From: a virus
Lineage: Duplodnaviria > Caudoviricetes
DNA: 64,000 nucleotides
Reading direction: 5' to 3' (one strand)
Virus record (IMG/VR): IMGVR_UViG_3300035208_002851
Span: 1-64,000 of that record
Every line of letters starts with the position of its first letter. Within the stretch, counting starts at the first letter, position 1. The notes beneath the pieces are model-generated. The model saw nothing but the letters and a program-made list of their open reading frames with translations, had not been told where the DNA came from and searched no databases. Position numbers and translations under genes: made by a program. Shown here one piece after another: positions 5,980-43,314 of the stretch.

Positions 5980-5993
5980 AACGGTGAAACGGA

Positions 5994-26741: not shown

Positions 26742-26908
26742 TGAAATACGAATTAAAATGTGAACATGACAATACAGTGCTTAAGCAAGAAGAAACTATA
26801 GCAGGTATAATTTACACCTGCTCAAAATGCCTTTGTGTCTATAGACTTATGATAGCTAAAAATGATAACAAATGTTGGGCTAAAAGATTTCCGAGGACAA
26901 AAAAATGA
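26741..26908 (+). CDS. Small zinc-ribbon protein
   Basis: CEHD...CSKC. Confidence 0.5.
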   Translation: MKYELKCEHDNTVLKQEETIAGIIYTCSKCLCVYRLMIAKNDNKCWAKRFPRTKK

Positions 26909-27630
26909 ACATTAAAGGCGTTGCCAATCTCTCCTTAGTAGACTGGGATAATGAAGTCTGTGCCACCCTCTTTCTTGGTGGGTGCAACTTCCGTTGCGGT
27001 TGGTGCCAAAACTCCTCCTTAGTCGTTGACGAACAGCAAATCAATTCCATTCCAATAGCAGACATTCTACAACATATCGAAGGCTTAGGAAGTTACATAA
27101 CTGGCATCTGTATCACTGGTGGTGAACCCACGTTGCACAATATAGAACCCCTATGTAGAGACATTAAAAACTTGGGATTAAAAGTAAAACTTGACACCAA
27201 CGGTTCCCACGGAGAAGTAGCAGAAAAACTCCTAAGTGATAACCTCGTTGACTACTTAGCATTAGATATAAAAGCTCCCTTAACAGTTAAAGATTACTCT
27301 AAAACAACCTCAACTCAAATATCTATAGATACATTATCAACCATAATGCACCTTGTAGACTTTCTATTAAATAACAAATATGACTATGAGTTTAGAACCA
27401 CCGTCGTTCCAACCCTGCATAATAAGCGAAGCATAGAACAAATCTGCAAATATGGTATAACGGGCGCACGAAAATACGTCATACAAAACTTCTGGAATTG
27501 CGGAAACCTAATTGACCCCGACTTATATAAAGTTAAACTTTTTCCACAGAAAAAGCTTGTAGAGTTTTCCAAAATAGCAGAACAGTATGTTGAAGAAGTA
27601 AAGATTCGCAACTTTAACCAGAATCTTTAA
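26905..27630 (+). CDS. nrdG: Anaerobic RNR activating radical SAM enzyme
   Basis: SLVDW, GCNFRCGWCQN, TGGEPT, DTNGS, EFRTT. Confidence 0.92.
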   Translation: MNIKGVANLSLVDWDNEVCATLFLGGCNFRCGWCQNSSLVVDEQQINSIPIADILQHIEGLGSYITGICITGGEPTLHNIEPLCRDIKNLGLKVKLDTNGSHGEVAEKLLSDNLVDYLALDIKAPLTVKDYSKTTSTQISIDTLSTIMHLVDFLLNNKYDYEFRTTVVPTLHNKRSIEQICKYGITGARKYVIQNFWNCGNLIDPDLYKVKLFPQKKLVEFSKIAEQYVEEVKIRNFNQNL

Positions 27631-27633
27631 ATA
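27620..27633 (+). promoter_or_regulatory. BRE-TATA promoter at the head of the glycan locus
   Basis: AGAATCTTTAAATA, 27 nt upstream of GTG 27660 (leaderless spacing). Confidence 0.65.
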
Positions 27634-27659
27634 TTCTTCTACCCTTTCTTATTTTTAAA

Positions 27660-28016
27660 GTGAAACTTATGATTATAGACGGCATGCGGGTAGAAGTAAC
27701 ACGATTTGATAATCTCTATGAACTTTTAAAAGTGGAGCAAACTCACTATATTTTAAAATTTGAGTTAAATAAGGACGATGCAATCTATTATATGATTGCC
27801 GATGGCCCAAGTTTTGCTTTGCTTGCTTTCTGTTTTGACAAAAATTTTACTCATGAAAACATAAAAATCGAAAATGGCAAAGCTATGGATTGCACAGAGT
27901 TAAACGGTACCACTATTGTAACTGTCAAAATTGAAGAGGATACCTTCTTAGAAAAAATCCTTGAATGCATCTATCCAGATGAAGAGAAACCTAAAAAGAA
28001 GTGGCGGTTCTTCTGA
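27660..28016 (+). CDS. Hypothetical protein
   Basis: ORF after the promoter. Confidence 0.55.
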   Translation: MKLMIIDGMRVEVTRFDNLYELLKVEQTHYILKFELNKDDAIYYMIADGPSFALLAFCFDKNFTHENIKIENGKAMDCTELNGTTIVTVKIEEDTFLEKILECIYPDEEKPKKKWRFF

Positions 28017-29323
28017 AAGTTACACTCATTAATCCCCCCGATCCTAACTCCATTGCGAAGGACTTAGACCCTTCCCTTGGGTTAATGTATCTATCTTCTT
28101 TTTTAAAAAATCATAATGTAGAATGTGAAATCTTAGATTTTGCGTTGCACGATAAATCCGAATGGTTATCCTTAATTAAATCTCATAAATCAGACCTTTA
28201 TGGGCTAACTGTTTACTCTTCAAGTGTGTCTACAGCAGATATTATTAACAAATTAATCAAAAGTGTACATCCAGAGTCAAAGATAATTTGGGGTGCAACG
28301 CATGCCTCGTACGAATGGATATCCTCGTTTATATATTCTCCAGAATTAGACTTTATAGCACTTGGAGAAGGTGAGGAAACTCTTCTAGAACTCTGTAGAA
28401 ACTCTGATGGAAACTATAATTCTATAGCTGGGTTAGCTAATAGAGATGGGCAAAGCATGTTCATTTCCAACTTGAGACCCCTAATAAAGAATATTGATGA
28501 GTTACCACTTCCAGATAGAACCATAGATTTGCATCAGTATACACGCAAAGTTGACGGGGTTCCCTCAACACCAATTATGACTTCTAGAGGATGTAGTTAC
28601 AACTGTCTTTTTTGTTGCAGTAGATACTTCTGGAAATATCCACGGTTTCATAGTTTTGAACGAGTTAAAACCGAGTTGAACATTATTAAGGAGCAAGGTT
28701 TCAACGCTGTACATTGCTGGGATGACACTTTCACCCTCAACCATGAGAGACTCTATAAGATTTTAGATGAAATTAAAAGACTGAAGTTTACTTTTAGATG
28801 CAATGGCGACCTACGGTTAGATACAAAAGAAGTTCTACAGAAACTCTATGAGAGCGGATGTAGAGAATATGCTGTTGGTATAGAATCTGGAGATCAACAA
28901 GTGCTTAACGCTATCAATAAACGTACTACTGTAGAACGCAACAAACAAGTTATGAAATGGGCTAAAGAAGTGGGACTACCAATTAAAGCCTATCTAATGG
29001 TTGGTAATGTTGGAGAAACAATGGATTCTATTAAAAAAACTATAGATTTCATCAAACAAACTGGTCCGGAATATTATACTATCTCAAATTTTGTACCAAT
29101 GCCAGGTTGTCAAATTTATTCTCAACCTGAAAAGTACGGTATTAAATTCAGAACCAAAAACTGGGATGAGTACTTTGTTGTAGGCAGGAAAAATCAAGGT
29201 GGTTGCGTCATAGATACCAAAGAAATGACAGCCGAGCAAATAGCTGAAGCCAGAGAAATGCTTATCGCAGAACTACCCAAACAAACTGGTAAATTGCAAG
29301 ACTATTATAAAAAAGTGAGTTAA
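28001..29323 (+). CDS. B12-binding radical SAM enzyme (putative methyltransferase)
   Basis: LGLMYL, GEGE, TSRGCSYNCLFC, DDTF, GIESG. Confidence 0.9.
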   Translation: MAVLLKVTLINPPDPNSIAKDLDPSLGLMYLSSFLKNHNVECEILDFALHDKSEWLSLIKSHKSDLYGLTVYSSSVSTADIINKLIKSVHPESKIIWGATHASYEWISSFIYSPELDFIALGEGEETLLELCRNSDGNYNSIAGLANRDGQSMFISNLRPLIKNIDELPLPDRTIDLHQYTRKVDGVPSTPIMTSRGCSYNCLFCCSRYFWKYPRFHSFERVKTELNIIKEQGFNAVHCWDDTFTLNHERLYKILDEIKRLKFTFRCNGDLRLDTKEVLQKLYESGCREYAVGIESGDQQVLNAINKRTTVERNKQVMKWAKEVGLPIKAYLMVGNVGETMDSIKKTIDFIKQTGPEYYTISNFVPMPGCQIYSQPEKYGIKFRTKNWDEYFVVGRKNQGGCVIDTKEMTAEQIAEAREMLIAELPKQTGKLQDYYKKVS

Positions 29324-29324
29324 T

Positions 29325-30092
29325 GTGAAGACAATTTTGTTGTGCGGCGGAAAAGGGTTAAGGTTGCCTGAAGAAACCTCAGAGCGCCCCAAACCCCTTG
29401 TAGAAATTGGTTCTCAGCCTATTTTAACCCATCTAATGAAAATCTACAGTCACTATAACTACAACGATTTCATAATCTGTCTAGGCTATAAAGGTTACAT
29501 GATTAAAGACTATTTCCTTCATTTCTATGAACATATCAACAATATCTACATAGATTTAGAAACAGGAGAAAAACACATCTCCTCTTATAAAGAGCCGTGG
29601 AAGATAAATCTATTAGATACAGGCGAAAACACAGCAACCGCTGGTAGAATGCTTTTTGCCCAAGAATTTCTAAACCCCGCAGAGCCATTCATGATGAACT
29701 ATTCCGATGGTCTATCAAATGTAAACATCCGTGAAGTTGTAAACTTTCACAATAAACATAAAAAACTAGCCACCTTTGTAGCTGTAAACAACCCAAGTAA
29801 ATTTGGTACAGTTTCACTTTCTAAAAATGGAACTGTAGAAAAATTCGGAGAAAAAGTCCAAGACGGATCCTACATCAACGGTGGATTCTTCGTTCTACAA
29901 ACCGAAGTCTTTAAATATATAAAAGACTCTAAGACAAGTTGGGAATTTGACGTTCTTCCAGAACTTGTCAGAGACCATCAGTTGATGGCTTACAAGTATG
30001 ACGGGTTCTGGAAATGCATGGATTCCTTGAAAGATAAAATTGAACTTGAAGAAATGTGGAATTCTGGTAAGGCGGCCTGGAAAGTATGGTAA
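29325..30092 (+). CDS. rfbF: Glucose-1-phosphate cytidylyltransferase
   Basis: LCGGKGLRL.EET..RPKP, DTG..T.TAGR, INGGFF, FWKCMD, WKVW. Confidence 0.93.
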   Translation: MKTILLCGGKGLRLPEETSERPKPLVEIGSQPILTHLMKIYSHYNYNDFIICLGYKGYMIKDYFLHFYEHINNIYIDLETGEKHISSYKEPWKINLLDTGENTATAGRMLFAQEFLNPAEPFMMNYSDGLSNVNIREVVNFHNKHKKLATFVAVNNPSKFGTVSLSKNGTVEKFGEKVQDGSYINGGFFVLQTEVFKYIKDSKTSWEFDVLPELVRDHQLMAYKYDGFWKCMDSLKDKIELEEMWNSGKAAWKVW

Positions 30093-30334
30093 GAAAATTA
30101 GATAATTCGGGTATTCAAAAATTCTATTTTGTTTCTGATAAACTTTATTCTTTTAGTTGGAAACTTCGTAAAAAAGTCCTAATAAATTTACTGGATATTT
30201 ATTCTATATAATATTAAAACATACCTATTTATATGCATGCTTTACTAAAAAGGGTTGTTATTTTGTTGCATACCAATTTACTTTTTTGGATCATAATAAA
30301 GACAAAGTTAATTAATAGTTGGAAGGTATGGTAA
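30078..30334 (+). repeat. 15-bp direct repeat TGGAA(A/G)GTATGGTAA flanking an AT-rich insert
   Basis: Copies at 30078-30092 and 30320-30334, both read WKVW-stop. Confidence 0.65.
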
Positions 30335-30526
30335 ATGAAAGAAATTAAATTATTAATTGGTGAAGATATAATTCAAGCTATTGTAGATGCTTTTTATGCA
30401 GTAGATGAAGAACCCATAACTATTTCTGGTAATGGTGTAAGAATTATCTTAATGAAAGATAGATTTGATGAAATTGTATCTTTCAACCCAAAAAGTGTAA
30501 TTGAGGTTAAATATGCGTGTCGCTGA
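30335..30526 (+). CDS. Hypothetical protein
   Basis: ORF. Confidence 0.45.
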   Translation: MKEIKLLIGEDIIQAIVDAFYAVDEEPITISGNGVRIILMKDRFDEIVSFNPKSVIEVKYACR

Positions 30527-31046
30527 TTACATCTTTAAATATCTAAACGAAGAAGCTAAAGTAGACACCATTTTCATGGTTACTGGTGGTGGTGCCATGT
30601 TCCTCAATGATGCTATAGGCCAAACCAAAAATCTTAAATATATCTGCTGCCACCATGAACAAGCAGCCACAATGGCAGCTTCCGCCTACAGTCGTTATAC
30701 TGGTAAACTCGGGGTTTGTGTTGTCACCACGGGGTGTGGTGGAACTAACACTTTAACTGGAGTTCTCGGTGCCTACCAAGACAGAATTCCCATGCTGATT
30801 ATCTCTGGTCAATCTAAAGTTTCTGAGTGTACTTATTTCAGAGAAGATAACGAACTTAGACAGTTAGGAGTACAAGAAGTAGATATTTCTAAATTAGTAA
30901 AATCAATAACTATTGCATCTTTTACTATTGAAAAAACAGAAAATGTAAAAGAATATCTAACATGGTCTATAGAAAAAGCTTTTGAATATCAAGGACCAGT
31001 TTGGATAGATGTCCCTATAAATATTCAAGGTGAAGAAATTGCTTGA
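30513..31046 (+). CDS. ThDP enzyme (YerE/acetolactate synthase-like), N-terminal Pyr domain
   Basis: VTGGGAMFLND, HHEQAA, TTGCGGTN, RQLGVQE, GPVWIDVP. Confidence 0.9.
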   Translation: MRVADYIFKYLNEEAKVDTIFMVTGGGAMFLNDAIGQTKNLKYICCHHEQAATMAASAYSRYTGKLGVCVVTTGCGGTNTLTGVLGAYQDRIPMLIISGQSKVSECTYFREDNELRQLGVQEVDISKLVKSITIASFTIEKTENVKEYLTWSIEKAFEYQGPVWIDVPINIQGEEIA

Positions 31047-32256
31047 TAAAGAAAGTATTGAAAAGTTAAAACTATTTCTTTTAAATTCAAAACGTCCAAT
31101 ACTACTTGTGGGTCATGGTGTAGAATTAGGTAATGCACAACGAAGACTTATACAGCTTCTTCAATGTTATCAAATTCCAGTTGTTTGGTCCCAAGGCGGA
31201 ATTAATGTGCTACCTTCAACTCATCCTTTAAATATTGGTAAAATTGGAACCAAAGGTTCTAGAGCAGGAAACTTTGCTGTACAAAACGCAGACTTAATAA
31301 TATCTATAGGTTCTAGACTTTCTGTAAGTACTACTGGTCAGAACTATGAATTATTTGGTAGAGAAGCAAAACTTATAGTTTTAGATACTGACAACGTTGA
31401 ACATACGAAAAATACCGTAAAGATTGATTTATTTATTGAGGCAGATGCTAATGACATATTATATACAATACATCATCATATCTATGATAGTAACGGTCCT
31501 AATTGTTCCGAATGGGTTCAAAAATGTCAACATTGGAAAGAAATCTTTCCCGTTTACCAACCAGAGTTCTCAAAGACTGATAAAGTAAACATGTATTATT
31601 TCATAGAAGAATTGTCAAATCAGTTACGAGAAAACGATGTAGTTGTCGCAGACGCAGGCTCTGCTATGTTTGTTACTTCACAGGGGCTCCGCTTCGGAGA
31701 AACCAACAAAGTTATCTTAAGTCACGCGCAAGCCGAAATGGGTTTCACAATACCAGCCTGTATAGGTGTAGCCTGCGCAAAACAAGGAGACGTAATTGGT
31801 ATCACTGGCGACGGCAGTTTCCAGATGAACATTCAAGAGTTGCAAACTATAAAGCATCACAATTTACCGATTAAACTTTTTGTGTGGAATAATGAAGGAT
31901 ATCTTTCTCAGAGACATACACAGATGTCTTACTTCGGTAGATTAACTGGAGCAGATGCATCCTCGGGAGTCAGCTTCCCAGATTTACAAAAGATTGCTTA
32001 TGCCTATGGAATCCCATATGTTGAAGCTGCTTCCAGCACTTATTTGCCTTTTACTATAGAATACACTTTATCTAAACCAGGACCAGTTATCTGTGAGATT
32101 CAATGCTTAAAAGAGCAAGACATTTTAACTATTAAATCTAAACAAGTTGACGGTAAATTTGTTTCTATGCCTCTTGAAGATATGTATCCTTATTTAGACC
32201 GAAAGATTTTTATGGAAGAGATGGTTATTAAACCTCTAGAGTGTTCGTTAAAGTGA
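31039..32256 (+). CDS. ThDP enzyme (YerE-like), central and PP domains
   Basis: R.GNFAVQNAD, GDGSFQMNIQEL...NN. GGTGA SD and TTG start. Confidence 0.9.
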   Translation: MLDKESIEKLKLFLLNSKRPILLVGHGVELGNAQRRLIQLLQCYQIPVVWSQGGINVLPSTHPLNIGKIGTKGSRAGNFAVQNADLIISIGSRLSVSTTGQNYELFGREAKLIVLDTDNVEHTKNTVKIDLFIEADANDILYTIHHHIYDSNGPNCSEWVQKCQHWKEIFPVYQPEFSKTDKVNMYYFIEELSNQLRENDVVVADAGSAMFVTSQGLRFGETNKVILSHAQAEMGFTIPACIGVACAKQGDVIGITGDGSFQMNIQELQTIKHHNLPIKLFVWNNEGYLSQRHTQMSYFGRLTGADASSGVSFPDLQKIAYAYGIPYVEAASSTYLPFTIEYTLSKPGPVICEIQCLKEQDILTIKSKQVDGKFVSMPLEDMYPYLDRKIFMEEMVIKPLECSLK

Positions 32257-33107
32257 GAATAGCAATTTTAGGTTCATCGGGTCACGTTGCAAATAATCTT
32301 TTTAGAAGTTTTAGAGATAATAAAGATTTCGTCTATCAATTTTCTAGAGAATCTATAGAAGATCCATACGATATAAATAGTATGTATAATGTTCGTTCAT
32401 ATAATGAACTTTATTATTGTAATTATGATGCTATAATAAATTGTGTTGGTTTTGGAAACCCAGCCTCGGTAGAAACTGCGGGTGCTGAAATTTTTAGAGT
32501 AACCGAAAAATATGACAATATGTGTATAGATTATCTAAAAATTCATCCATCTACGAAATATGTCTATATTAGTAGTGGCGTTGCCAATAATAGAATAGAT
32601 ACATCCAATCTATATCAATTATCTAAAATTTATACAGAAACAAAACATAGAACCCTACCAGAGTTAAATATTATAGATATTAGACTCTACTCATTTTTTA
32701 CAAGATTCTCAAATTTGGAAGATTCTTTCTTCATGTCACAACTCATAAAATCTATAAAGAATAAAACAGAGTTTGTGACAGACGAAGCTTTGATGTGGCG
32801 TGACTACATTAATCCGAAAGACTTATATTCGTTGATACAGCTATGCTTACAAGAAGAGAAAATTAACGGTTGGTTTAATACTTTCAGCCTTAAACCAGTA
32901 GAGAAGTTTGAAATTTTAGAATACTTCCAAAATAAGTATAACTTGCGCGTCAAGTTTGTACCCAAGCACACTGGTTTCAGTTCTTCAAATGACTCTTCAT
33001 ATTTTGCAAAGGGAACTGATGGGGTAAAACAGGGTTATAAACCAACATATACTTCTATAGATACTATCAAAGAAGAATCGGAGTTTTTATTAAATGGAAC
33101 AACTTGA
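32253..33107 (+). CDS. NAD-dependent epimerase/reductase (extended SDR)
   Basis: ILGSSGHVA, YQLSK, RDYI. Confidence 0.85.
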   Translation: MRIAILGSSGHVANNLFRSFRDNKDFVYQFSRESIEDPYDINSMYNVRSYNELYYCNYDAIINCVGFGNPASVETAGAEIFRVTEKYDNMCIDYLKIHPSTKYVYISSGVANNRIDTSNLYQLSKIYTETKHRTLPELNIIDIRLYSFFTRFSNLEDSFFMSQLIKSIKNKTEFVTDEALMWRDYINPKDLYSLIQLCLQEEKINGWFNTFSLKPVEKFEILEYFQNKYNLRVKFVPKHTGFSSSNDSSYFAKGTDGVKQGYKPTYTSIDTIKEESEFLLNGTT

Positions 33108-34122
33108 AATTTTTAGAAATAAAAAAATTCTTATAACCGGAACATCTGGTTTTAAGGGATCTTATCTTGCTTTATGGCTTAATATGCATGGAGCTAAAGT
33201 TAATGGATTTTCATTAGAACCACCAACAGATCCCAATATATTTGAATCTTTAAAATTAAAAAAGTATATTACACAATATTATGGTGATGTACGTGATAAA
33301 ATTAGGTTTGAAACCATAATAGAAGAAACTCAACCAGAATATGTTTTTCATCTTGCGGCGCAACCTATTGTTAAAACTTCATATGAAAATCCAACAATGA
33401 CATTTGAAACTAATATTTTAGGTACCTTAAATTTAATGGAAATTTGTAAAAACCATAATTCTATAAAATCCATAGTTGTCGTTACCAGTGATAAAGTTTA
33501 TAAGGATAAATACCCATATATTTATTCAGAGGATTCGGAGTTAGGGGCAAATAGTGATCCTTATTCCACAAGTAAAGTTTGTTCGGAGTTTGTAGTTGAA
33601 TCTTATAAAAAAGTTTTTAAAGAGAAGGGTATTGCTTTAGCTACAGTTCGCGCGGGTAATGTTATTGGGGGAGGAGATTGGGGAACTAATAGAATTATTA
33701 CATGTATTATTGATTCTTTAATTAAGAATTATGAATTAGGTATATATTCACCCAAAGCTATTAGACCATGGCAATCTATATTTGATTGTATTTACGGTTA
33801 TATGCTCGTATCGGCAAATTTAAAAACAGAATCTTGGAATTTTGGACCAAAATCTATAAATTCTATAACTGTAGAAGAGTTAGTTAATAAACTTATGAAA
33901 ATGTGGGGTTCTGGTAATTATTCTATTATAGATAAAAATTTTGAAGAAACAAATTATTTAAAATTAGATTGTGAAAAGGCAAATAGAGAATTAAATTGGT
34001 ATCCAAAATATGATATAAATGAAATTTTAAATAAAACAGTTTCTTGGTATAAAAATTTCTATAATAATCAAAATATGTATAAATTTACATTGGAGCAAAT
34101 TAAAGAATATGAAAAGAAGTAA
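33094..34122 (+). CDS. rfbG: CDP-glucose 4,6-dehydratase
   Basis: TG.SGFKG, HLAAQP.V, TSDKVY, DPYS.SK, RAGNVIGGGDW, RPWQ. Confidence 0.93.
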   Translation: MEQLEIFRNKKILITGTSGFKGSYLALWLNMHGAKVNGFSLEPPTDPNIFESLKLKKYITQYYGDVRDKIRFETIIEETQPEYVFHLAAQPIVKTSYENPTMTFETNILGTLNLMEICKNHNSIKSIVVVTSDKVYKDKYPYIYSEDSELGANSDPYSTSKVCSEFVVESYKKVFKEKGIALATVRAGNVIGGGDWGTNRIITCIIDSLIKNYELGIYSPKAIRPWQSIFDCIYGYMLVSANLKTESWNFGPKSINSITVEELVNKLMKMWGSGNYSIIDKNFEETNYLKLDCEKANRELNWYPKYDINEILNKTVSWYKNFYNNQNMYKFTLEQIKEYEKK

Positions 34123-34747
34123 AAAAGATAGGTTACCAATGAAATGTTTGGAATGTGGTAAGATTATTTACTTAACTCCTTATCTTAGTAAAATTAGGAA
34201 ATATTGTTCTTCAAAATGTTCTGATAAAAATTTGATAAGAAGGAAAAAAATGGGAGAAAAAATGTCAATAGTCAAAACTGGAACTAAGATGAGTGAAGAA
34301 TGTAAATTAAAGCATTCACAATATAGGGGTTGGAAGCACACCGAAGAATCAAAAGAAAAATGTAGACAAGCACGATTACATCAGACATTTAAAAAATTTT
34401 CGAATATAGAAAAACTTATAAAGGAAGAAATTCTAAAAAGAAACTTGCCCTTTGAACATAATAAAGAAGTTTTGTGTTGTATACCAGATTTTTCTAACAA
34501 GAAATATAAAATAGCAATTTTTTGTGATGGTACTTATTGGCATTCAGATCCAGAAAAATATTCTATAGATAAATTAAGTAAAATACAAATACATAATATG
34601 TCTTATGATATAAAAAATAATGAAGCATTAAATAAGGAAGGATATAAAGTTTTGAGATTTTGGGAAAGAGAAATAAATGAGTCTCCACAAAAATGTGTAG
34701 ATTCAATGGAAAGAGAATTATTAATAAGAGGGTATATAAATGAGTAG
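34109..34747 (+). CDS. NUMOD3-repeat + Vsr/DUF559-type endonuclease (free-standing homing endonuclease-like)
   Basis: KHTEESKEK, PDF....AIFCDG.YWH, GYKVLRFWE. Confidence 0.8.
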   Translation: MKRSKKDRLPMKCLECGKIIYLTPYLSKIRKYCSSKCSDKNLIRRKKMGEKMSIVKTGTKMSEECKLKHSQYRGWKHTEESKEKCRQARLHQTFKKFSNIEKLIKEEILKRNLPFEHNKEVLCCIPDFSNKKYKIAIFCDGTYWHSDPEKYSIDKLSKIQIHNMSYDIKNNEALNKEGYKVLRFWEREINESPQKCVDSMERELLIRGYINE

Positions 34748-35669
34748 AATACTATTATCGGGAATAACTGGCTTCGTATCTGGAGAATTAATACCAAATC
34801 TAATAGATAGAGGTCATGAAATCTATGGTATTTCAAGATATGTTACTGGTAGAGTTGCACCAATAAATTCAATACCAACATATTTTGCTGATCTAAGAGA
34901 TGGGTTTACCATAAGAAAAATAGTCCGTGATGTACAACCAGACAAAGTTATACATGTTGGTGCATTATCTAGAGTTTCAGAATCATACGATCATCCACAA
35001 GAATTTGTTGAAGCAAATCTTCAAGGTACAATAAATCTTGCAGAGGCCTGTCTTAGAGAATGTCATAATTTTAAGCAATTTCTTTTTGCAGCTACAAGTG
35101 AAATGTTTGGTAATAATGGATTTGAAATTCAAAAAGAAACAAATCCAAGGAATCCAGCATCTCCTTATGCAGTAAGTAAAGTTGCTTGCGAGAACTATCT
35201 TAATTATATGAGGGAAGCTTATAACTTTCCATCGACAATTTTAATTCCATATAATACCTACGGACGTAAAAAAGACTTCCATTTCTTTGTAGAACGTACA
35301 ATAACTCAAATGTTGACAAAAAACAAAGTTTCCTTAATAGATCCCGAACCAATAAGAGATTGGATGTTCATTAAAGATCATGCTAATGCATATCTAACAT
35401 GTTTAGAAAATGAAAAGGCAATAGGCGAAACATTTAATTTCTGTACAGGAACTGGCATGTCTATTAAAGAAACAGCAGAATTAATTGCAAAATTAACCGA
35501 CTTTAAAGGAGAAATTATTTGGAATTCTGGTCCAAAACGTCCAACAGAAAGTAAAGTTATTATAGGGAATAATGATAAATCTAAAAAAATTCTTAATTGG
35601 ACGCCAAAATATACTCTTGAAAAAGGTCTAAAATTAACTATAGAAAACTTACGAGAAGAAGTTCTATGA
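34740..35669 (+). CDS. NDP-sugar dehydratase/epimerase (GDP-mannose/dTDP-glucose 4,6-dehydratase-like)
   Basis: SGITGFV, TSE, SPYAVSK, RDW. Confidence 0.88.
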   Translation: MSRILLSGITGFVSGELIPNLIDRGHEIYGISRYVTGRVAPINSIPTYFADLRDGFTIRKIVRDVQPDKVIHVGALSRVSESYDHPQEFVEANLQGTINLAEACLRECHNFKQFLFAATSEMFGNNGFEIQKETNPRNPASPYAVSKVACENYLNYMREAYNFPSTILIPYNTYGRKKDFHFFVERTITQMLTKNKVSLIDPEPIRDWMFIKDHANAYLTCLENEKAIGETFNFCTGTGMSIKETAELIAKLTDFKGEIIWNSGPKRPTESKVIIGNNDKSKKILNWTPKYTLEKGLKLTIENLREEVL

Positions 35670-36655
35670 GTATACCAATACAAATTTTCAAAATTAAACA
35701 AGTAGACTATGAAAAACTTGAGAAACCCAAAACCTCTATAGTACTCTGTACTTTTAGAGAACACCCAAAATTTGAACTTCTATATGAAAGTCTATCACAC
35801 CAAACTCTAAAAAACTTCGAACTTGTTATAGCTGACTACCTCTGTGAAACCCGTAGAGAATTAATACAAAAGTTGTCACGAAAATATGGTATTCCCACAG
35901 TCCACGTTCCTCGTGATAAATACGGTGTGAAAGCTTTCAATGTTGGCATCGCAAACTCCTCTGGTGAATACATGATTCACATCAATGACGCCAACTACTT
36001 CCATAATCGTTTCATAGAGAAACATCTAATTACAGCTATGAATAACTTCTTAAGTTTGGGAACTCGTTATTTCATCTATAATATTGACTTCCCAATTGAA
36101 AAACATCTAACAGCTTCTATAGAAATCCCAGAAAACTTAGACAAAGATACATCATTTCTGATAAATCAGCAAAGCAATGGAATTAAAGATTATCTGCATT
36201 TAAACTTTGGAGAACATAAACTTACAAGTCCCCAAGACTTTAGGATGTTAGGACTACCACCGAAGTTTATCATAGATAACAATTATATTATTGAAGCCGC
36301 ACCTGGTTGGAGTTACGGGGGAAACATTTGTGGTCCGACAGAACTCTTTTTAAAAATCAATGGGTTTGACGAAGCGTTTGATAATGGTTATGGTTGGTCT
36401 GATTGTAATCTTGGAGTAAGAGCATTCAACGCAGGTTACAAGTCATATATGAACATTTCCAATTGGAGTCTTGAAATACACGATAACGACCATGACAGTG
36501 TTTACAATCTGCTTCCAGATTATGAATCTAAAGAAGCATCTAACCACAATTGGAAGCTCTATGAAGAAGCTTGCGACAAAAAACTTACAGCTGTTAACCC
36601 CCACATGGATTTGCGTAAAATAAGAGAAGAAACTTTAAAAGGTAATTTAAAATGA
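35666..36655 (+). CDS. GT2 (GT-A) glycosyltransferase
   Basis: SIVLCT, QT..NFELVIAD, INGFDE...GYG.SD. Confidence 0.85.
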   Translation: MSIPIQIFKIKQVDYEKLEKPKTSIVLCTFREHPKFELLYESLSHQTLKNFELVIADYLCETRRELIQKLSRKYGIPTVHVPRDKYGVKAFNVGIANSSGEYMIHINDANYFHNRFIEKHLITAMNNFLSLGTRYFIYNIDFPIEKHLTASIEIPENLDKDTSFLINQQSNGIKDYLHLNFGEHKLTSPQDFRMLGLPPKFIIDNNYIIEAAPGWSYGGNICGPTELFLKINGFDEAFDNGYGWSDCNLGVRAFNAGYKSYMNISNWSLEIHDNDHDSVYNLLPDYESKEASNHNWKLYEEACDKKLTAVNPHMDLRKIREETLKGNLK

Positions 36656-37194
36656 GTTTAGAAGAATGGTATAATGAAAATCCTTCCATGAAGCAGGATT
36701 TAAAAATTTTATACGAAATGGTTCATTTCAATAAACCAAGACAAATTGTTGAGATAGGTACTGGTCATTCTACAATGACTATGGCATATGCTCTAAAATG
36801 TTTTATGATGGATGTAAAAATACTTACTACAGATATTGATAAAGTTCGTGTAGAATATTTTATGAAAAAAATAGATAGTGCAGACTTATCAAATTACTGT
36901 ATATTGCATACAAAGGATTCTATTGAATTTTTAAATGAAATAAACTTTATATCAAGTTATATTGAGAAAATCGTAGATATGATTTTTATAGATTCTGCTC
37001 ATGAATACCAGAAAACTTTAGATGAAATTATTGCAGCTAATAATATTTTATCCTCAAAAGGATTTATATTTATTCATGACACCACAAATGGGTTTGTGTT
37101 AGCGGCAATTAAAAAATTCCTTGAAAATAATAATTTGTATATATATTCCAATTTTCCAACGCAGTGCGGTTTGGGAGTTTTAAAAAGAAAATGA
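36652..37194 (+). CDS. Class I SAM methyltransferase (Methyltransf_24-like)
   Basis: VEIGTG, IFIDSAH, IHDT. Confidence 0.85.
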   Translation: MSLEEWYNENPSMKQDLKILYEMVHFNKPRQIVEIGTGHSTMTMAYALKCFMMDVKILTTDIDKVRVEYFMKKIDSADLSNYCILHTKDSIEFLNEINFISSYIEKIVDMIFIDSAHEYQKTLDEIIAANNILSSKGFIFIHDTTNGFVLAAIKKFLENNNLYIYSNFPTQCGLGVLKRK

Positions 37195-37754
37195 TAACTA
37201 AATTAGAATCCTTAATAAAAGAATATAACGAATCCTACGAATCCAGAGGTATGACTTTAGATGCTCATACCATGTATAATTTTATAATTGATAGAAATCT
37301 GAAGAAAATCTTAGAAATTGGTGTCCTCCACGGTTCCACCACGAGATTTCTCGCTTTAGCAGTTTCACAACTTAAAGACGCCAGCTTAACAAGCGTTGAC
37401 ATCGAAAATCAATGTCTAGAAGAAGCAAAGCAGAAGCTTGAAAGTGACGGAACCTTAGCAGGCGTAAACTTTGTTTGTTCCGACTCAGTAAAGTTTCTTA
37501 GCGACCAACTCTTAGATTCATGGGATCTAATTTTTATAGATACAGATCACACCTTAAAGCAAACTATAGCTGAAGTTTTCTTGGCAGGACTGGTTGTAAA
37601 ACAAAATGGTGGTCACATCTTTTTACATGATGCACACATGCCAGATGTTATGACAGCCATTAGAGTTTTCTCAGAATATAATAAAGGTCAATGTAGTATG
37701 ACAGTTTTCAAAACCGAATCTGGTTTAGTTTTAATTCAAATGGAGAAAAAATAA
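37191..37754 (+). CDS. Class I SAM methyltransferase (Methyltransf_24-like)
   Basis: LEIGV..G.T, IFIDTDH, LHD. Confidence 0.85.
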   Translation: MITKLESLIKEYNESYESRGMTLDAHTMYNFIIDRNLKKILEIGVLHGSTTRFLALAVSQLKDASLTSVDIENQCLEEAKQKLESDGTLAGVNFVCSDSVKFLSDQLLDSWDLIFIDTDHTLKQTIAEVFLAGLVVKQNGGHIFLHDAHMPDVMTAIRVFSEYNKGQCSMTVFKTESGLVLIQMEKK

Positions 37755-37755
37755 A

Positions 37756-38880
37756 ATGAGGATAGCATACGTAAGTACTTATAGATGTTCTTGTGGTGTA
37801 GGGATTTACCTAGAGGAATTGGCAAACTCAGAATCAAAACTTGCAGAAGTTAAAGTTTTTGCAGAAAAACTTATTCCTCCTCAGGTAGAGAATCCTCCGT
37901 TAGACCCAACAATAAATGTAGACTATGAACGTTGCTGGTTACGAGGAGAAGGTTATACTACTTTACAAGAAAAAATATTAGAATATAAACCAGATGTTTG
38001 CCACATACAATTTGTGGCTGGAATTTTTGGCAGCCTTGACTATGAATTAAATAGTCCTTTCCAAAAATTCTGTAAAGCTCTACGAGACGCAAATATACAA
38101 ATCGTTATGACTCTACATGATATTCCACAACATATGCCACAACAAACCAACCTTGGTAAATGGTATAAAAACCTTAATGCAAAATTCATCATTATGAATA
38201 TAGAAATGTCCGCAGGACTGCGAGAATGGGAACCAAGTTTAGATATCAATTTGATTCCTTTGGGAACCCCGATGTTTACTCCTATAGATAAACTGGAAGC
38301 GCGTAAAAAACTTGGGTTAAAAGAAGAAGATTTTATTATGACTCAAGTTGGTTTCTACGGAATAGACAAAGGAATGCTTGATATTGTCAAAGCTGTTCCA
38401 AATGTTAACATTCCCAACTTTAAGCTTGCTTTTGCTGGTGGTTTCCACCCATTAGCTTCACCTGTGCACAAACCCCATGTCTTAGAATGTATGAAGTTTG
38501 CTATACAAAATAAAATCACAAACAAAGTAATCTTTGTAAATAAAATTCTACCAGAAGATGAAATCAATCTATGGGCTTCCGCCTCAGATTTCTTAATTCT
38601 TAATCAACAAATGGTATTTGGAAGTTCTACCTCAGCATCTGCTCATAGAATTCTCTGCGCGGGTAAGCCGGTTATTATGAGTCAATCCCCAAAATTGTCA
38701 GAGTTTCTTAACGGTATACATTGCGTGAAAACTTCTACTGAACAAATCTCCGAAAATGTTAATAAGTTGTATTTGGATAAAGTTCTACAAGAAAAGATTT
38801 CAAAAAATGCGTTAGAATATGGCAAGAAAACATCTTTCGATGTTATTGCTTTAAAGCATATGGAGGTTTACAAAAAATGA
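37756..38880 (+). CDS. GT4 glycosyltransferase
   Basis: VSTY...CGVG.Y, HIQ, TLHD, KG, S.SAH. Confidence 0.85.
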   Translation: MRIAYVSTYRCSCGVGIYLEELANSESKLAEVKVFAEKLIPPQVENPPLDPTINVDYERCWLRGEGYTTLQEKILEYKPDVCHIQFVAGIFGSLDYELNSPFQKFCKALRDANIQIVMTLHDIPQHMPQQTNLGKWYKNLNAKFIIMNIEMSAGLREWEPSLDINLIPLGTPMFTPIDKLEARKKLGLKEEDFIMTQVGFYGIDKGMLDIVKAVPNVNIPNFKLAFAGGFHPLASPVHKPHVLECMKFAIQNKITNKVIFVNKILPEDEINLWASASDFLILNQQMVFGSSTSASAHRILCAGKPVIMSQSPKLSEFLNGIHCVKTSTEQISENVNKLYLDKVLQEKISKNALEYGKKTSFDVIALKHMEVYKK

Positions 38881-38993
38881 AACTATATCAAACATTAAAT
38901 ATGTTCAACGAAGAAGGAGTTATCATCTCCGAAACCATTTCAGACGATACCGAATACCACTTCTTTATTAACGGTAAGGAAATAAATCTATGA
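38877..38993 (+). CDS. Hypothetical small protein (38 aa)
   Basis: ATGA-coupled at both ends. Confidence 0.45.
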   Translation: MKLYQTLNMFNEEGVIISETISDDTEYHFFINGKEINL

Positions 38994-40039
38994 TCCGATT
39001 TGGCAGTTTAGACTTTCACGATGAGGAGAAGCAAGCTATAGAAGACGTTATCTCTCAAAAAGAACCCCAATTAACAATGGGTAAGAAAGTCTATGAGTTC
39101 GAGCAAAGTTTTGCTAAATGGCTCGGTGTAAAACATGCTGTAATGGTTAACAGCGGTACTTCAGCACTCATGGTAGCTTTACAAGCCGACAATGAAGTTG
39201 GTGGACATGATTTAATTACATCGGCCCTAACTTATCCAGCAGATTGGAATGCTCTACGAACCACAAGCACTCCCTTTAATGTTCAAGATGTAGGAAATGA
39301 TTTAGTAGTGCATGAAAATAAACATTCTGTAAAAGACCATCTTGCAGTACATTTACTGGGTAAACCTTGTAGAGTAAACGCAATTATAGAAGACTGTGCA
39401 GAAGCCTTAGGTTCTTCTATTAATGGTAAAAAATTAGGTTCCTTCGGACTTTTAAGTGTCTTTTCATTATATGTTGCGCATGCTATTAATACTATTGAAG
39501 GTGGAATGGTAGCTACAAACAACGATAAATTGTACGATATTTGTAGAAGTCTGCGAGATAATGGTAGAATCTGCACCTGCCCAGTTTGTACCTTAAAATC
39601 TACTGGTGTTTGTACAAAACGTTATTCTTCAGAATCTATAGAACGAAGATGGGAAGTCGGAACAAGCGTTGGATACAACTATAAACCTACAGAAATTCAA
39701 GGAGCACTAGGACTGGTAAAAATGAAGCACGTAGATGAAATTTGTAAAAGAAGAAATGAAATCTTCCTAAGATACAGTGATGCTTTCAAAAACTTTAAAC
39801 AGGAGTCTGACGAATATATAGTCTCTATAGCCTACCCAGTAGAAGTAAAAGACCCACAGAAAACTATAGCTAAACTCGAAAAAGATGGTATCGAATGTCG
39901 CGGCATGTTCCCAGCTTATAGTTCTTTCCAGAAAAATGCTTATAGAATCAACCAAACCCACATTTTGCTACCCCTCCAGCAAGAAATGACAGATAAAGAT
40001 GTCGATTACGTGATTGAGAGTGTGAAAAAATGTCAATAA
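38990..40039 (+). CDS. rfbH: CDP-4-keto-6-deoxyglucose 3-dehydrase (E1, DdhC/RfbH-like)
   Basis: DegT fold with His in place of the Schiff-base Lys (SLYVAHAINTIEGG) and Cys cluster GRICTC..C......C. Confidence 0.75.
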   Translation: MIRFGSLDFHDEEKQAIEDVISQKEPQLTMGKKVYEFEQSFAKWLGVKHAVMVNSGTSALMVALQADNEVGGHDLITSALTYPADWNALRTTSTPFNVQDVGNDLVVHENKHSVKDHLAVHLLGKPCRVNAIIEDCAEALGSSINGKKLGSFGLLSVFSLYVAHAINTIEGGMVATNNDKLYDICRSLRDNGRICTCPVCTLKSTGVCTKRYSSESIERRWEVGTSVGYNYKPTEIQGALGLVKMKHVDEICKRRNEIFLRYSDAFKNFKQESDEYIVSIAYPVEVKDPQKTIAKLEKDGIECRGMFPAYSSFQKNAYRINQTHILLPLQQEMTDKDVDYVIESVKKCQ

Positions 40040-40281
40040 CTGATGGAATTATTATATGCACATTTAAAGCATTTGAACCTTTAGAGCCAGGAGATATGGT
40101 TAAATCTCATTATAAACAAGTAAAAAAAATAACAAAAAAAGATAAACTGAGTGAAATTATTGGTATCGTTGATTCATTCCTTAATATATTTCCTATAGAA
40201 AAAGGAAATGATGTTCATATACAAGTTTTTGGTCGCTGTAAAGTTAACAAAGATATGGAAGATATAATATTATGTCATTAA
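40030..40281 (+). CDS. Hypothetical protein, weak resemblance to beta-tulip decoration proteins
   Basis: PGD.V....IIGIV......G..V.IQ.FG. Confidence 0.4.
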   Translation: MSITDGIIICTFKAFEPLEPGDMVKSHYKQVKKITKKDKLSEIIGIVDSFLNIFPIEKGNDVHIQVFGRCKVNKDMEDIILCH

Positions 40282-41045
40282 GTATTATAGTTCCCGCGTG
40301 GAATCATTGGCAAACAACAGCAAATTGCTTAGCCTCAATTTTTAAAAGTAAAATACTCATACCCTATAAAGTTATCGTAATCAATGACAATTCTACAGAC
40401 TATACGGCAAAGCTTCTACAAACTATAGGTCAAGAAGGCTATCCAATAACTTTACTAACAAATGACGAAAATAAAGGTTATCTTGGTTCTACAAACATGG
40501 CTCTAAAAATTGTAAACTCTACCTATATTTTATTTTTGAATAACGATGTTATATTAGACAAAAATTGCATAAAAGAGCTTATAGAGGTCTATAGACAGCA
40601 CCCAGATATCGGTATTCTTGGTGCCACCCAACTTGATGTTAACAGAAATGAATTGTATCCATTAAAGTTTTTCTTAAGAGGAGAAAAAGCAACCATTCGA
40701 GATCATATCATAGCAACCAATATTCCAGAAAATCTAAGAGAAGCGGATGTAGCTTATTGTGATGATGTACACTTCGCGTGTTCGTTAACAACTAAAGAAG
40801 TTATAGATAAGATAGGCGGTCAACTTGACCCAGATTTCGGACTTGGTAATTACGACCAGGAAAGTGCCTGTTGTGCTGTTAAAGAACAAGGCTACCAAAT
40901 TGCAGTTGCTCCACGGGCAAAATTTGTTCATCTCTGTTCAGTCTCTGTTCGAGATAAAATCTCAGAATATTCCTTATTGCTTGATAAAAACCGTGAACTC
41001 TTCTTTAAAAAATGGGGTCAGAAACTTAAGGAGAATAAAATCTAA
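40272..41045 (+). CDS. GT2 glycosyltransferase
   Basis: SIIVPAWN, INDNSTD, N.GY, FLNND. Confidence 0.9.
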   Translation: MSLSIIVPAWNHWQTTANCLASIFKSKILIPYKVIVINDNSTDYTAKLLQTIGQEGYPITLLTNDENKGYLGSTNMALKIVNSTYILFLNNDVILDKNCIKELIEVYRQHPDIGILGATQLDVNRNELYPLKFFLRGEKATIRDHIIATNIPENLREADVAYCDDVHFACSLTTKEVIDKIGGQLDPDFGLGNYDQESACCAVKEQGYQIAVAPRAKFVHLCSVSVRDKISEYSLLLDKNRELFFKKWGQKLKENKI

Positions 41046-41821
41046 TGAAGAAACTTAGTATAATTATCTGTGGTTGGAACAACTGGAAGTACACAGCAAA
41101 ATGTCTATCTCATATTTTCAAGTCTACATATAGTAAAGAAAACTATGATATTATCTTTATAGACAACGCTTCATCCGACAAGACAGAAATTCTCCTTACT
41201 TATTTAGTCGAACAAGGAGAACCCATAGTCTACCTAAAACAAAAAGAAAACATGGGATTTGTTAAAGGTAATAACATAGGTTGGAAAGTTGCACAAACAC
41301 CCTATGTGTTACTACTAAACAATGATGCCTTCGTACAAGAAAAATGCATAGAATCTATGATGGAAATTATAGAATCTGACCAAAAAATTGGTGCTGTCGG
41401 AGCTATAGAATACACTTTAGATGGAATTCCTACTAAAGGAGATAAACCCTTCATCTTTTTTAAACCAAAAGTCTTATTAGACCCAGAACTTAAATCTTTA
41501 GAAGAACTTGGTTATAAAGATATGCCAAAATTTGTAGATGTAGACATCGTTGGTAGCGCCTGCTCAATAGTTCGTAAGGACGCCTTAAAAGGTAAAGATA
41601 TTTTTGATGAAAGATATCATCCCGCACACTATGACCAAGAAGATGCTTGGATGCAAATAAAACATGTTAACGGATATAGAATTGTCATGCCAGTATATGG
41701 TGTAGTTTTCAAGCATAAAATCGCCGCAACTACAAGTCAGAACTTGAAACTCTATGAAGAAGTTTTAAAAGTAAATAAACAAAAATTCTTAGATAAATGG
41801 TTAACTGAGGTTAAACAATGA
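41045..41821 (+). CDS. GT2 glycosyltransferase
   Basis: IDNASSD, NMGF..GNN, LLNND. Confidence 0.9.
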   Translation: MKKLSIIICGWNNWKYTAKCLSHIFKSTYSKENYDIIFIDNASSDKTEILLTYLVEQGEPIVYLKQKENMGFVKGNNIGWKVAQTPYVLLLNNDAFVQEKCIESMMEIIESDQKIGAVGAIEYTLDGIPTKGDKPFIFFKPKVLLDPELKSLEELGYKDMPKFVDVDIVGSACSIVRKDALKGKDIFDERYHPAHYDQEDAWMQIKHVNGYRIVMPVYGVVFKHKIAATTSQNLKLYEEVLKVNKQKFLDKWLTEVKQ

Positions 41822-42207
41822 GTGGTAATAACGCAGAATGGATTAAACGCAGAAAAGAACTTTTAAGTAACATAAAGAAATTTAAGTCAGAAGGAGATAG
41901 ATTAAGTAAAACTACCCAAATTAACTATATGCATAATGCTATGCATGAATCCGTAGTAGGTTTCTCTGGATGGTTAAATGGTTGGATTTCTACAGAATTA
42001 ACAAAGAAAATCAAGGTTGATGAACAATCAATTCCAATTTTGACAGATAAAGAATTAGATGATTTCTTCATGAGATATCAAGACATCGCCACCAAATTCA
42101 TAGAGTTAGACATTGAAATCACAGATAGTATCACTAAGAAAGCAAAAAAGAAAACCATCTTCAACAAATTCGAAATTAAAGATACTTCTTCACGGATGGT
42201 TGTTTAA
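41818..42207 (+). CDS. DUF2153-like archaeal protein
   Basis: W....LL..I......DRL......M...F..WL...FIELDI..T pattern. Confidence 0.55.
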   Translation: MSGNNAEWIKRRKELLSNIKKFKSEGDRLSKTTQINYMHNAMHESVVGFSGWLNGWISTELTKKIKVDEQSIPILTDKELDDFFMRYQDIATKFIELDIEITDSITKKAKKKTIFNKFEIKDTSSRMVV

Positions 42208-43314
42208 TTGAAGGTTGCACTTGTAAGTACACTTGGAGTTAAATGTGGGATTTCAACCTATAGTACATACCTTGGAGATGAACTTAATAAACTTACAAAT
42301 GTTTTTGTAACTGGGTTAGCTGAATTTCCATTTCCAGATGATAGAGCTATAGATACTTTTAAACCCTCCTTTCCTTATTATAATTGCTGGCAACGTTCAG
42401 AACCATATAAAAATTTAATAGAAGAATCTAAGAAGTTTGATTATGACATCTATCATATACAACATCAATTTGGATTGTTTTCAAATGAGCAAGATACAAT
42501 AGAACTTTATGAAAAATGTAAGAAGCCTATTATCACAACTTTACATGATGTAGTACAACCAGATCCTAGAATGAGTAGATATTTTTCCTCGATTATAGAA
42601 AACTCTTCTAAACTTATAGTTCATACAAAAACTTGCTATGATTTACTACAGCAATGGAATTGTCCAACTTCTAAAATAGAATTAATACCACATGGCACAA
42701 AACTTATAGATGTTCCAGACAAATTAGAAGCCCGAAGAGTTCTACAGATTCCAGAAAAAGCCAAAGTTATACTTTCGTGGGGATTTATTTGGGAATCCAA
42801 AGGTATCCTAGATTTAGTTAAAATTTTAACTGAAGTTAAAAAAGTATACCCAGAAACAATCTTAGTACACGCAGGTGGCGTTCACCCAATAATTCAAGGT
42901 TCATCATATCTACAAAATATCTTTAAAACAGCTCTTAAAGATGGGTTAACACCTAAAGATTTAATTGTTACAGGTTGGCTTGCCGAAGATAAAGTTCCTC
43001 TCTATTTCAGTGCTTCAGATTTAATAGTTTTAAACTATATGCGTGGTTCTGCAAGTGCAAGCGGTGCAGCCCACAGAGCAATGGCAGCTCATAGACCTTT
43101 GGTTGGAACTGATGATCCATGCCTAAATGGGGATATACCAAGATATATTGTTCCTCGTTTTGATATAAATGCCCTGAAAGATGGGATAGTCAAAGTTCTA
43201 TCTGATGAAGTTCTACAGAAATCTTTAGTTGAGCAAGCTGATAAAGTTGCACAAGAAACCTCTTGGAGTAATACTGCTAAAAAACATTTAGCAGTTTACT
43301 CATCTAGTTATTAA
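42208..43314 (+). CDS. GT4 glycosyltransferase (paralog of 37756)
   Basis: CGISTY, HIQH, TTLHD, IPHG, KG, SASGAAH. Confidence 0.88.
   Translation: MKVALVSTLGVKCGISTYSTYLGDELNKLTNVFVTGLAEFPFPDDRAIDTFKPSFPYYNCWQRSEPYKNLIEESKKFDYDIYHIQHQFGLFSNEQDTIELYEKCKKPIITTLHDVVQPDPRMSRYFSSIIENSSKLIVHTKTCYDLLQQWNCPTSKIELIPHGTKLIDVPDKLEARRVLQIPEKAKVILSWGFIWESKGILDLVKILTEVKKVYPETILVHAGGVHPIIQGSSYLQNIFKTALKDGLTPKDLIVTGWLAEDKVPLYFSASDLIVLNYMRGSASASGAAHRAMAAHRPLVGTDDPCLNGDIPRYIVPRFDINALKDGIVKVLSDEVLQKSLVEQADKVAQETSWSNTAKKHLAVYSSSY

Follow-up and report, generated by a model that had tools for sequence, protein, structure and literature searches.

A putative yersiniose-type sugar pathway with a split carboligase in a tailed virus of a probably archaeal host

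Carbon-branched 3,6-dideoxy sugars are rare bacterial surface antigens. The yersiniose route of Yersinia pseudotuberculosis O:VI comprises DdhA, DdhB, the pair of E1/DdhC and E3/DdhD, YerE and YerF (PMC9306805, PMC12247030). Here, we describe a gene cluster in the first 64 kb (positions 1 to 64,000, referred to as the window) of the IMG/VR virus record IMGVR_UViG_3300035208_002851, a linear record of 100,978 bases with a CheckV completeness of 64%. The cluster resembles the Yersinia route to CDP-yersiniose A in that it is predicted to encode, in the order of the chemistry, a cytidylyltransferase, a 4,6-dehydratase, a His-type 3-dehydratase that uses pyridoxamine 5'-phosphate (PMP) and carries a Cys cluster, a thiamine diphosphate (ThDP)-dependent carboligase and an adjoining NAD(P)-type reductase. 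A near-complete yersiniose-type gene set had been claimed from the DNA letters of the window (referred to as the sequence-only reading), and all five genes named there were found on the plus strand. While the proposed chemistry, judged from the encoded proteins, is that of the published route, several traits set the viral system apart: the setting is a tailed virus with a probably archaeal host, the ThDP enzyme is divided between two genes, the E1-like protein is a member of a short lineage with another Cys spacing, E3 is missing, and the short-chain dehydrogenase/reductase (SDR) is not detectably close to the SDRs beside other YerE-like genes. Furthermore, only soluble transferases accompany the pathway, and neither Wzx/Wzy nor other genes for lipid-carrier-linked assembly are present. 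A search of the accessible literature found no paper reporting genes for the synthesis of a C-branched 3,6-dideoxy sugar in an archaeal virus.

Four further systems are useful for comparison. JanthE of Janthinobacterium sp. HH01 (PDB entries 8rph, 8rpi and 8rpj), a YerE-like carboligase, is the best solved relative of the larger viral ThDP subunit and has the same domain order; it is, however, a single chain of 619 amino acids with a CDG motif, whose natural substrate is unknown (PMC12188165), whereas the viral enzyme has a GDG motif and consists of two chains. A two-subunit ThDP branching system is represented by AviB1/AviB2, pairs of the pyruvate dehydrogenase (PDH) E1 alpha/beta type, which add two-carbon branches to sugars (PMC4753412). 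These pairs belong to another ThDP superfamily, whereas the viral split lies between the pyrimidine-binding (Pyr) domain and the central domain of a decarboxylase-type enzyme. The viral 3-dehydratase candidate shares with E1 (CDP-6-deoxy-L-threo-D-glycero-4-hexulose-3-dehydrase, 3bcx) a His at the position of the catalytic Lys, four matched Cys and the overall fold; however, it has 349 instead of 437 amino acids and lies outside the canonical E1 clade. ColD (GDP-4-keto-6-deoxymannose 3-dehydratase, 2gms) likewise has His for Lys, is similar in size to the viral protein and needs no reductase partner, but it lacks the Cys cluster and acts on a GDP-sugar.

The proposed pathway and its first two enzymes

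We lean towards the view that the virus makes its own activated C-branched 3,6-dideoxyhexose of the yersiniose type, which would be used by its own soluble glycosyltransferases; the functions of all cluster genes are inferred from sequence. The coordinates given for the cluster refer to the window, and all genes described in it are located on the plus strand. RfbF (29325 to 30092), a DdhA-type glucose-1-phosphate cytidylyltransferase, matches the NCBIfam equivalog model TIGR02623 over its full length (1 to 255 of 255) with 304.8 bits and an E-value of 4.6e-91, thereby exceeding the cut-off of 300.25 by a narrow margin. RfbG (33094 to 34122), a DdhB-type CDP-glucose 4,6-dehydratase, reaches 385.7 bits with TIGR02622 (cut-off 278.45, E-value 1.9e-115). 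Both genes are thus located where the sequence-only reading had placed them, and the hidden Markov model E-values of the named genes lie far beyond chance. As suggested by these equivalog-level matches, RfbF would form CDP-glucose from glucose-1-phosphate and CTP, and RfbG would convert it to CDP-4-keto-6-deoxyglucose.

The split ThDP enzyme and the adjoining putative reductase

All three domains of a ThDP enzyme are encoded in the cluster, spread over two reading frames, which overlap by 17 nt. The N subunit (30501 to 31046, probable start ATG 30513) has a length of 177 to 181 amino acids, contains the Pyr domain (PF02776, 119 bits) and has kept the HHEQ motif with the catalytic Glu. The M+C subunit (31030 to 32256), a protein of about 405 amino acids, consists of the central and pyrophosphate-binding (PP) domains (PF00205, PF02775) with the ThDP motif GDG...NN, and an AGGTGA sequence is located 6 nt upstream of an alternative TTG start at 31039. 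Several lines of evidence reveal that this split is real. The four closest homologues of the M+C subunit (67 to 84% identical) likewise lack the N domain, and at least 12 stand-alone N-domain proteins of 175 to 185 amino acids (56 to 82% identical) were found, all of which stop at the same point, with a linker shorter than that of the fused relatives. Moreover, two assemblies from different studies agree exactly at the split junction. A sequencing frameshift as the cause of the split was rejected on these grounds. Four of the N-domain proteins are encoded on contigs equal in size and source to those of the four closest M+C homologues; co-location of the closest E1-like and split-ThDP relatives was judged by equal contig size only. 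In the ThDP tree, the split forms constitute a single clade (support 100).

The ThDP enzyme is supported to be YerE/JanthE-like rather than an acetohydroxyacid synthase (AHAS), although it was the AHAS models that gave the best NCBIfam matches and the names assigned to its relatives by the Joint Genome Institute (JGI) include "acetolactate synthase". Taken at face value, these names would make the enzyme an acetolactate synthase, i.e., an auxiliary gene of amino acid metabolism. Its two parts, however, reach only 110 and 204 bits with the AHAS equivalog, for which the cut-off is 538, and the M+C subunit scores 249.7 bits with JanthE (8rph, residues 14 to 399), about twice the 132.8 bits of the best AHAS. 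With 5ahk, which we take to be PpYerE, it scores 113.7 bits. A tree of 52 rows, which does not include YpYerE, groups 47 of them on a long branch (support 99); this clade contains the window, its fused and split relatives, and virus-borne as well as bacterial copies, seven of the latter with RfbF, RfbG and E1 neighbours. IlvB and IlvI of Escherichia coli are placed outside. Furthermore, neither the AHAS small subunit (ALS_ss_C) nor ketol-acid reductoisomerase (KARI_N) was found as a domain in the record. The same alternative holds that the DegT-fold protein of the cluster is an ordinary amino-sugar aminotransferase, since some of its relatives are called transaminases by the JGI; here, the His that replaces the PLP-binding Lys (PLP, pyridoxal 5'-phosphate) in all 30 members of its clade argues to the contrary. 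We therefore regard this alternative as highly improbable. The YerE-like character claimed in the sequence-only reading was upheld and no grouping with true AHAS was observed; only the notion of a single enzyme had to be given up in favour of two genes.

Of 127 bacterial genomes searched, 22 hold a ThDP homologue, and an RfbF homologue (35 to 40% identical) lies nearby in seven of 17 extended bacterial loci, most of which also contain RfbG-type and E1-type genes. The YerE-like ThDP family travels with 3-dehydratases, since 72 of the 73 DegT proteins that neighbour a ThDP homologue in 80 IMG/VR loci are of the canonical His-plus-Cys E1 type. In GenBank phages, no YerE-like homologue was found; the matches there were host-type AHAS of at most 30% identity. 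The IMG/VR records with E1-type and ThDP genes yielded no Terminase_6N (four records) and neither Gp23 nor a capsid protein of nucleocytoplasmic large DNA viruses (five records; both probes were silent in control genomes, too). No RfbF match was present in any of the IMG/VR loci L242 to L320, and one of these loci, L245, additionally carries a ketopantoate hydroxymethyltransferase, a class-III aminotransferase and PhoH.

According to motifs, trees and gene neighbourhood, the two ThDP subunits, one with the Pyr domain and the other with the central and PP domains, would assemble to a carboligase that decarboxylates a 2-keto acid and transfers the resulting acyl unit to the ketone at C4 of the sugar. 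Pyruvate is most likely the donor, as a Pfam scan of the cluster proteins other than two small open reading frames (ORFs) of 63 and 38 amino acids revealed no aldolase that could supply a longer one.

Directly adjoining the ThDP gene, as expected from the sequence-only reading, is the gene for SDR288 (32241 to 33107), an extended SDR of 288 amino acids, which overlaps the end of the ThDP gene by 16 nt. SDR288 has a Gly-rich N-terminus and a YxxxK motif and matches PF01370 weakly (27.9 bits); it has no relative in the PDB by sequence and falls into generic epimerase/dehydratase clusters in the Atlas. In the sister virus G001, the gene of a 53% identical homologue overlaps the fused ThDP gene at its opposite end. 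As its gene adjoins that of the ThDP enzyme in both viruses, SDR288 is proposed to be the side-chain ketoreductase with a YerF-like role, which would reduce the side-chain ketone to a hydroxyethyl group. The reduction by YerF, which had been presented as an established step, is itself a proposal, as the ketoreduction in the yersiniose route was described as uncharacterised (PMC4753412).

The short E1-like protein and the proposed removal of the C3 hydroxyl

The DegT-fold protein encoded at 38990 to 40039 (PF01041, 189 bits) carries hallmarks of E1. An alignment with solved structures revealed that its His164 occupies the position of the PLP-binding Lys of PseC and of H220 of Yersinia E1, a residue that is Lys in the mutant entry 3bb8. 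Four cysteines, C195, C197, C200 and C208, align one-to-one with C251, C253, C257 and C261 of E1, although they form a C-x-C-x2-C-x7-C motif in a loop that is four residues longer than that of E1. By contrast, ColD and the other His-type proteins without the Cys cluster have no cysteine in the corresponding loop. The ligands of the E1 [2Fe-2S] cluster are presumably C193, C251, C253 and C261; equivalents of the latter three and of C257, but not of C193, occur in the viral protein. Its closest relatives form a short clade of about 30 sequences, which comprise 343 to 386 amino acids and are 46 to 76% identical, while the identity of the next relatives drops sharply to 36%. All 30 clade members have kept H164, the four Cys, the N-S-G-T-S-A phosphate-binding stretch and D135 without exception.

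A tree of 62 proteins separates the His-type proteins as a whole from the Lys-type aminotransferases (support 99), and the short clade (support 99) is sister to a group (support 98) that unites the canonical-length E1 types with His and Cys and the ColD types with His only. The AlphaFold model predicted from the clade alignment is confident (predicted local distance difference test score 87) except for the Cys loop, which is of low confidence. In a fold search, this model matched E1, ColD and aminotransferases equally well, with TM-scores of about 0.8 (0.80 for E1). By its hallmarks, the protein would be a sugar 3-dehydratase, E1-like but of a distinct lineage. With His in place of Lys it is no plain aminotransferase, and the Cys cluster distinguishes it from ColD; the hallmarks noted from the DNA letters are therefore borne out, while orthology to DdhC is not. 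Motifs, trees and neighbourhood suggest that the enzyme, with PMP bound and His164 as the base, would remove the C3 hydroxyl group, and that the four-Cys loop most likely holds an Fe-S cluster. As the virus lacks E3, this cluster would be fed by a host donor such as ferredoxin.

A scan of IMG/VR with the E1-like protein as a single query gave no match, and a profile scan recovered only relatives with 36% identity or less; in a metagenome scan, three members of the short clade were among the matches listed. No domain of the E3 signature (Fer2, NAD_binding_1) was detected in the whole 64%-complete record of 100,978 bases, which extends the earlier observation for the window, and a motif scan of the record revealed no 4Fe-4S ferredoxin.

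Several points weigh against the pathway as proposed. The E1-like protein, which is sister to E1 plus ColD, is no DdhC orthologue, and it failed the RfbH model NF011936 with 123.6 bits against a cut-off of 423. The residue equivalent to C193 of E1 is Ala137, at a position that is not conserved in the clade, and the four-Cys loop could bind zinc instead of an Fe-S cluster. With neither E3 nor a ferredoxin-type motif in the record, the 3-deoxy step would need an outside electron donor. No close relative of SDR288 was detected next to bacterial or other viral YerE-like genes. In addition, a distance of 5 kb separates the E1-like gene from the block of RfbF, ThDP, SDR and RfbG genes, and neither an E1-like gene nor RfbF is present anywhere in the record of G001.

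The first of these points bear on a ColD-like mechanism leading to the same product, in which PMP would be regenerated from glutamate without outside electrons, while the four-Cys loop would bind zinc in a structural role. Such a mechanism would explain why E3 is missing, not only here but also from all five other viral records in which a YerE-like ThDP gene was found (its neighbour is E1-type in four of them and ColD-type in the fifth, L290). It would also agree with the loss of the ligand C193, with a protein of about the size of ColD and with a full-length PDB score that is best for ColD (96 bits) and slightly lower for E1 (80.8 bits). We still consider it distinctly unlikely: the loop of ColD is devoid of cysteines, whereas the four Cys of the clade are invariant and have their one-to-one counterparts in E1. 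The tree lends it no weight either, since a clade that is sister to both groups implies neither mechanism.

The location of the E1-like gene and its distribution among relatives could instead indicate two routes. RfbF and RfbG would then act with the ThDP enzyme and the SDR to give a C4-branched 6-deoxyhexose that retains the C3 hydroxyl, while the E1-like protein would use another 4-keto-6-deoxy sugar, perhaps the product of a second SDR, SDR309, to form a 3,6-dideoxy sugar without a branch, comparable to colitose or abequose. G001, whose record of 106,319 bases is 78% complete by CheckV and whose capsid protein is 90% identical to that of the window, holds the fused ThDP gene, SDR288, RfbG and SDR309, with sugar enzymes that are 41 to 53% identical and re-ordered. 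Because G001 keeps RfbG, the ThDP enzyme and the SDR without an E1-like gene, the 3-deoxy step is modular or optional in this virus group, and the two-route explanation therefore stays alive. The position of the E1-like gene among glycosyltransferases, away from the ThDP gene, would fit it as well, as would the order SDR309-GT1-E1-like (GT, glycosyltransferase) in the metagenome contig L162 and the T-S-E motif of SDR309, which resembles that of 4,6-dehydratases. On the other hand, SDR309 remains under every equivalog cut-off, the G001 record is incomplete, and the DegT genes beside viral YerE-like genes are E1-type with a single exception. The acceptor of YerE is CDP-4-keto-3,6-dideoxyglucose, and the same was proposed for ErwE (PMC12247030, PMC9306805).

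A further argument comes from L081, a contig of a Bathyarchaeia metagenome-assembled genome, which holds the only member of the short clade among the best 80 matches in a scan of 185,579 species genomes. In this contig (9962 to 14579), a ThDP pair of the PDH-E1 beta/alpha type is encoded immediately after the short-clade E1-like gene, and genes for an SDR and a NUDIX protein come next. The branching logic seems to be the same here, with a non-homologous, AviB1/AviB2-type enzyme in place of the YerE-type one, and such a neighbourhood suggests that the short E1-like clade is functionally connected to ThDP branching. In view of this, we think it rather unlikely that the virus uses two separate routes, and prefer a single pathway to the branched 3,6-dideoxy sugar.

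Gene neighbourhood, host and biological meaning

The genes around the five named ones are consistent with further processing of a sugar. Upstream, a B12-binding radical SAM enzyme (28001 to 29323; PF02310, PF04055) stops 1 nt ahead of RfbF. Its top NCBIfam matches, PhpK and HpnJ, are far under the cut-off; it is possibly a tailoring enzyme, e.g., for C-methylation of the sugar, or a partner of another kind. A gene of this type is located near the short E1-like gene in both loci with enough flank, i.e., the window and L081, where the homologue (5266 to 6495) is 29% identical to that of the window. It was not found in L241, the 21-kb locus searched of G001, the virus without an E1-like gene.

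The two small ORFs have no homologues in the fetched loci. The ORF of 63 amino acids (30335 to 30526) overlaps the start of the ThDP N subunit gene, and the micro-ORF of 38 amino acids (38877 to 38993) shares ATGA overlaps with both of its neighbours, the GT1 gene upstream and the E1-like gene downstream. A Vsr/DUF559-type endonuclease with a Cys-rich N-terminus (34109 to 34747; PF04480, PF03852) is encoded between RfbG and SDR309, where stop and start codons overlap on both sides. It is missing from the same place in G001 and is probably a selfish insertion without a step in the pathway. SDR309 (34740 to 35669), a protein of 309 amino acids similar to GMD, LegB and GalE by NCBIfam matches, scores 166 bits with a LegB-like model, 131 with dTDP-glucose dehydratase and 129 with GalE, and its PDB matches are mixed. 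It is kept in G001 (41% identical) and L162 (35%) and could act as a further 4,6-dehydratase, as an epimerase or, on a different sugar, as a 4-reductase.

Pfam matches assign the following genes (35666 to 38880) to one GT2, two CmcI-like methyltransferases and one GT1, a block that is syntenic in the metagenome contigs L161 and L162 and in L241. Downstream of the E1-like gene, an ORF of 83 amino acids, two GT2 genes, a DUF2153 gene and a GT4 gene (40030 to 43314) form the glycan-assembly end of the operon; they adjoin the tail genes on the minus strand and are syntenic in L161 and L162. These two contigs share the order methyltransferase-GT1-E1-like-GT2-GT2-(DUF2153)-GT4. All genes from 30335 to 43314, the two micro-ORFs included, overlap or abut. 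When L241 is compared with the window (26905 to 43314), the glycan cluster appears as a hypervariable, mosaic region in this virus group.

None of the 23 cluster proteins has a membrane segment, and Pfam scans of these proteins turned up no flippase, polymerase or initiating phosphoglycosyl transferase. This suggests that glycosylation takes place in the cytoplasm and is directed to proteins. The methyltransferases, and perhaps the B12 radical SAM enzyme, would tailor the sugar or the glycan, and six to seven soluble transferases would attach the sugar in the cytoplasm, probably to virion proteins.

That the virus is tailed, as had been assumed, is evident from a portal protein, an HK97-type capsid protein and a family-B DNA polymerase (PolB) encoded in the window; the archaeal host, assumed alongside, can be called probable only. 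The window also encodes an AAA+ ATPase and the anaerobic ribonucleotide reductase pair NrdD/NrdG, the virus encodes a clamp loader similar to replication factor C (RFC), one ORF matches the large subunit of the archaeo-eukaryotic primase weakly and below the threshold, and DUF2153, a family described as conserved in archaea, is found within the sugar cluster. Together, these features make an archaeal, anaerobic host probable. The stretch from 30300 to 32300 is letter-for-letter identical in metagenome contigs from a landfill (depth 34) and from groundwater (depth 7.9), which derive from two studies and one of which may have given rise to the record itself; no RNA dataset was listed among the holders of this stretch. 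About 20 kb upstream of the cluster, the window encodes a PLP-dependent PALP protein of the tryptophan-synthase-beta fold (9056 to 9994), which has only a weak match to threonine synthase. A connection to the supply of the keto acid would be speculation.

It is tempting to place these findings in a wider context. We tentatively suggest, as a possibility that we ourselves regard with some doubt, that the short E1-like clade is a third, so far unrecognised lineage of sugar 3-deoxygenases, which holds its whole metal site in one loop and draws on the ferredoxin of an anaerobic host instead of E3. Together with the split YerE-like carboligase, it might constitute a virus-adapted toolkit that is swapped as modules among archaeal tailed viruses, and the presence or absence of the 3-deoxy step might vary a virus-made sugar coat on the particles.

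If the proposed pathway is correct, a tailed virus of anaerobic archaea would produce its own kind of sugar in the cytoplasm, which would most likely end up on the particle, and an exchange of pathway modules would allow close relatives to vary this sugar. The natural split of a YerE-like carboligase bears on ThDP active sites formed across chains and on the biocatalysis of tertiary alcohols. Likewise, a compact His-type 3-dehydratase without an E3 partner could show how anaerobes power the deoxygenation at C3.

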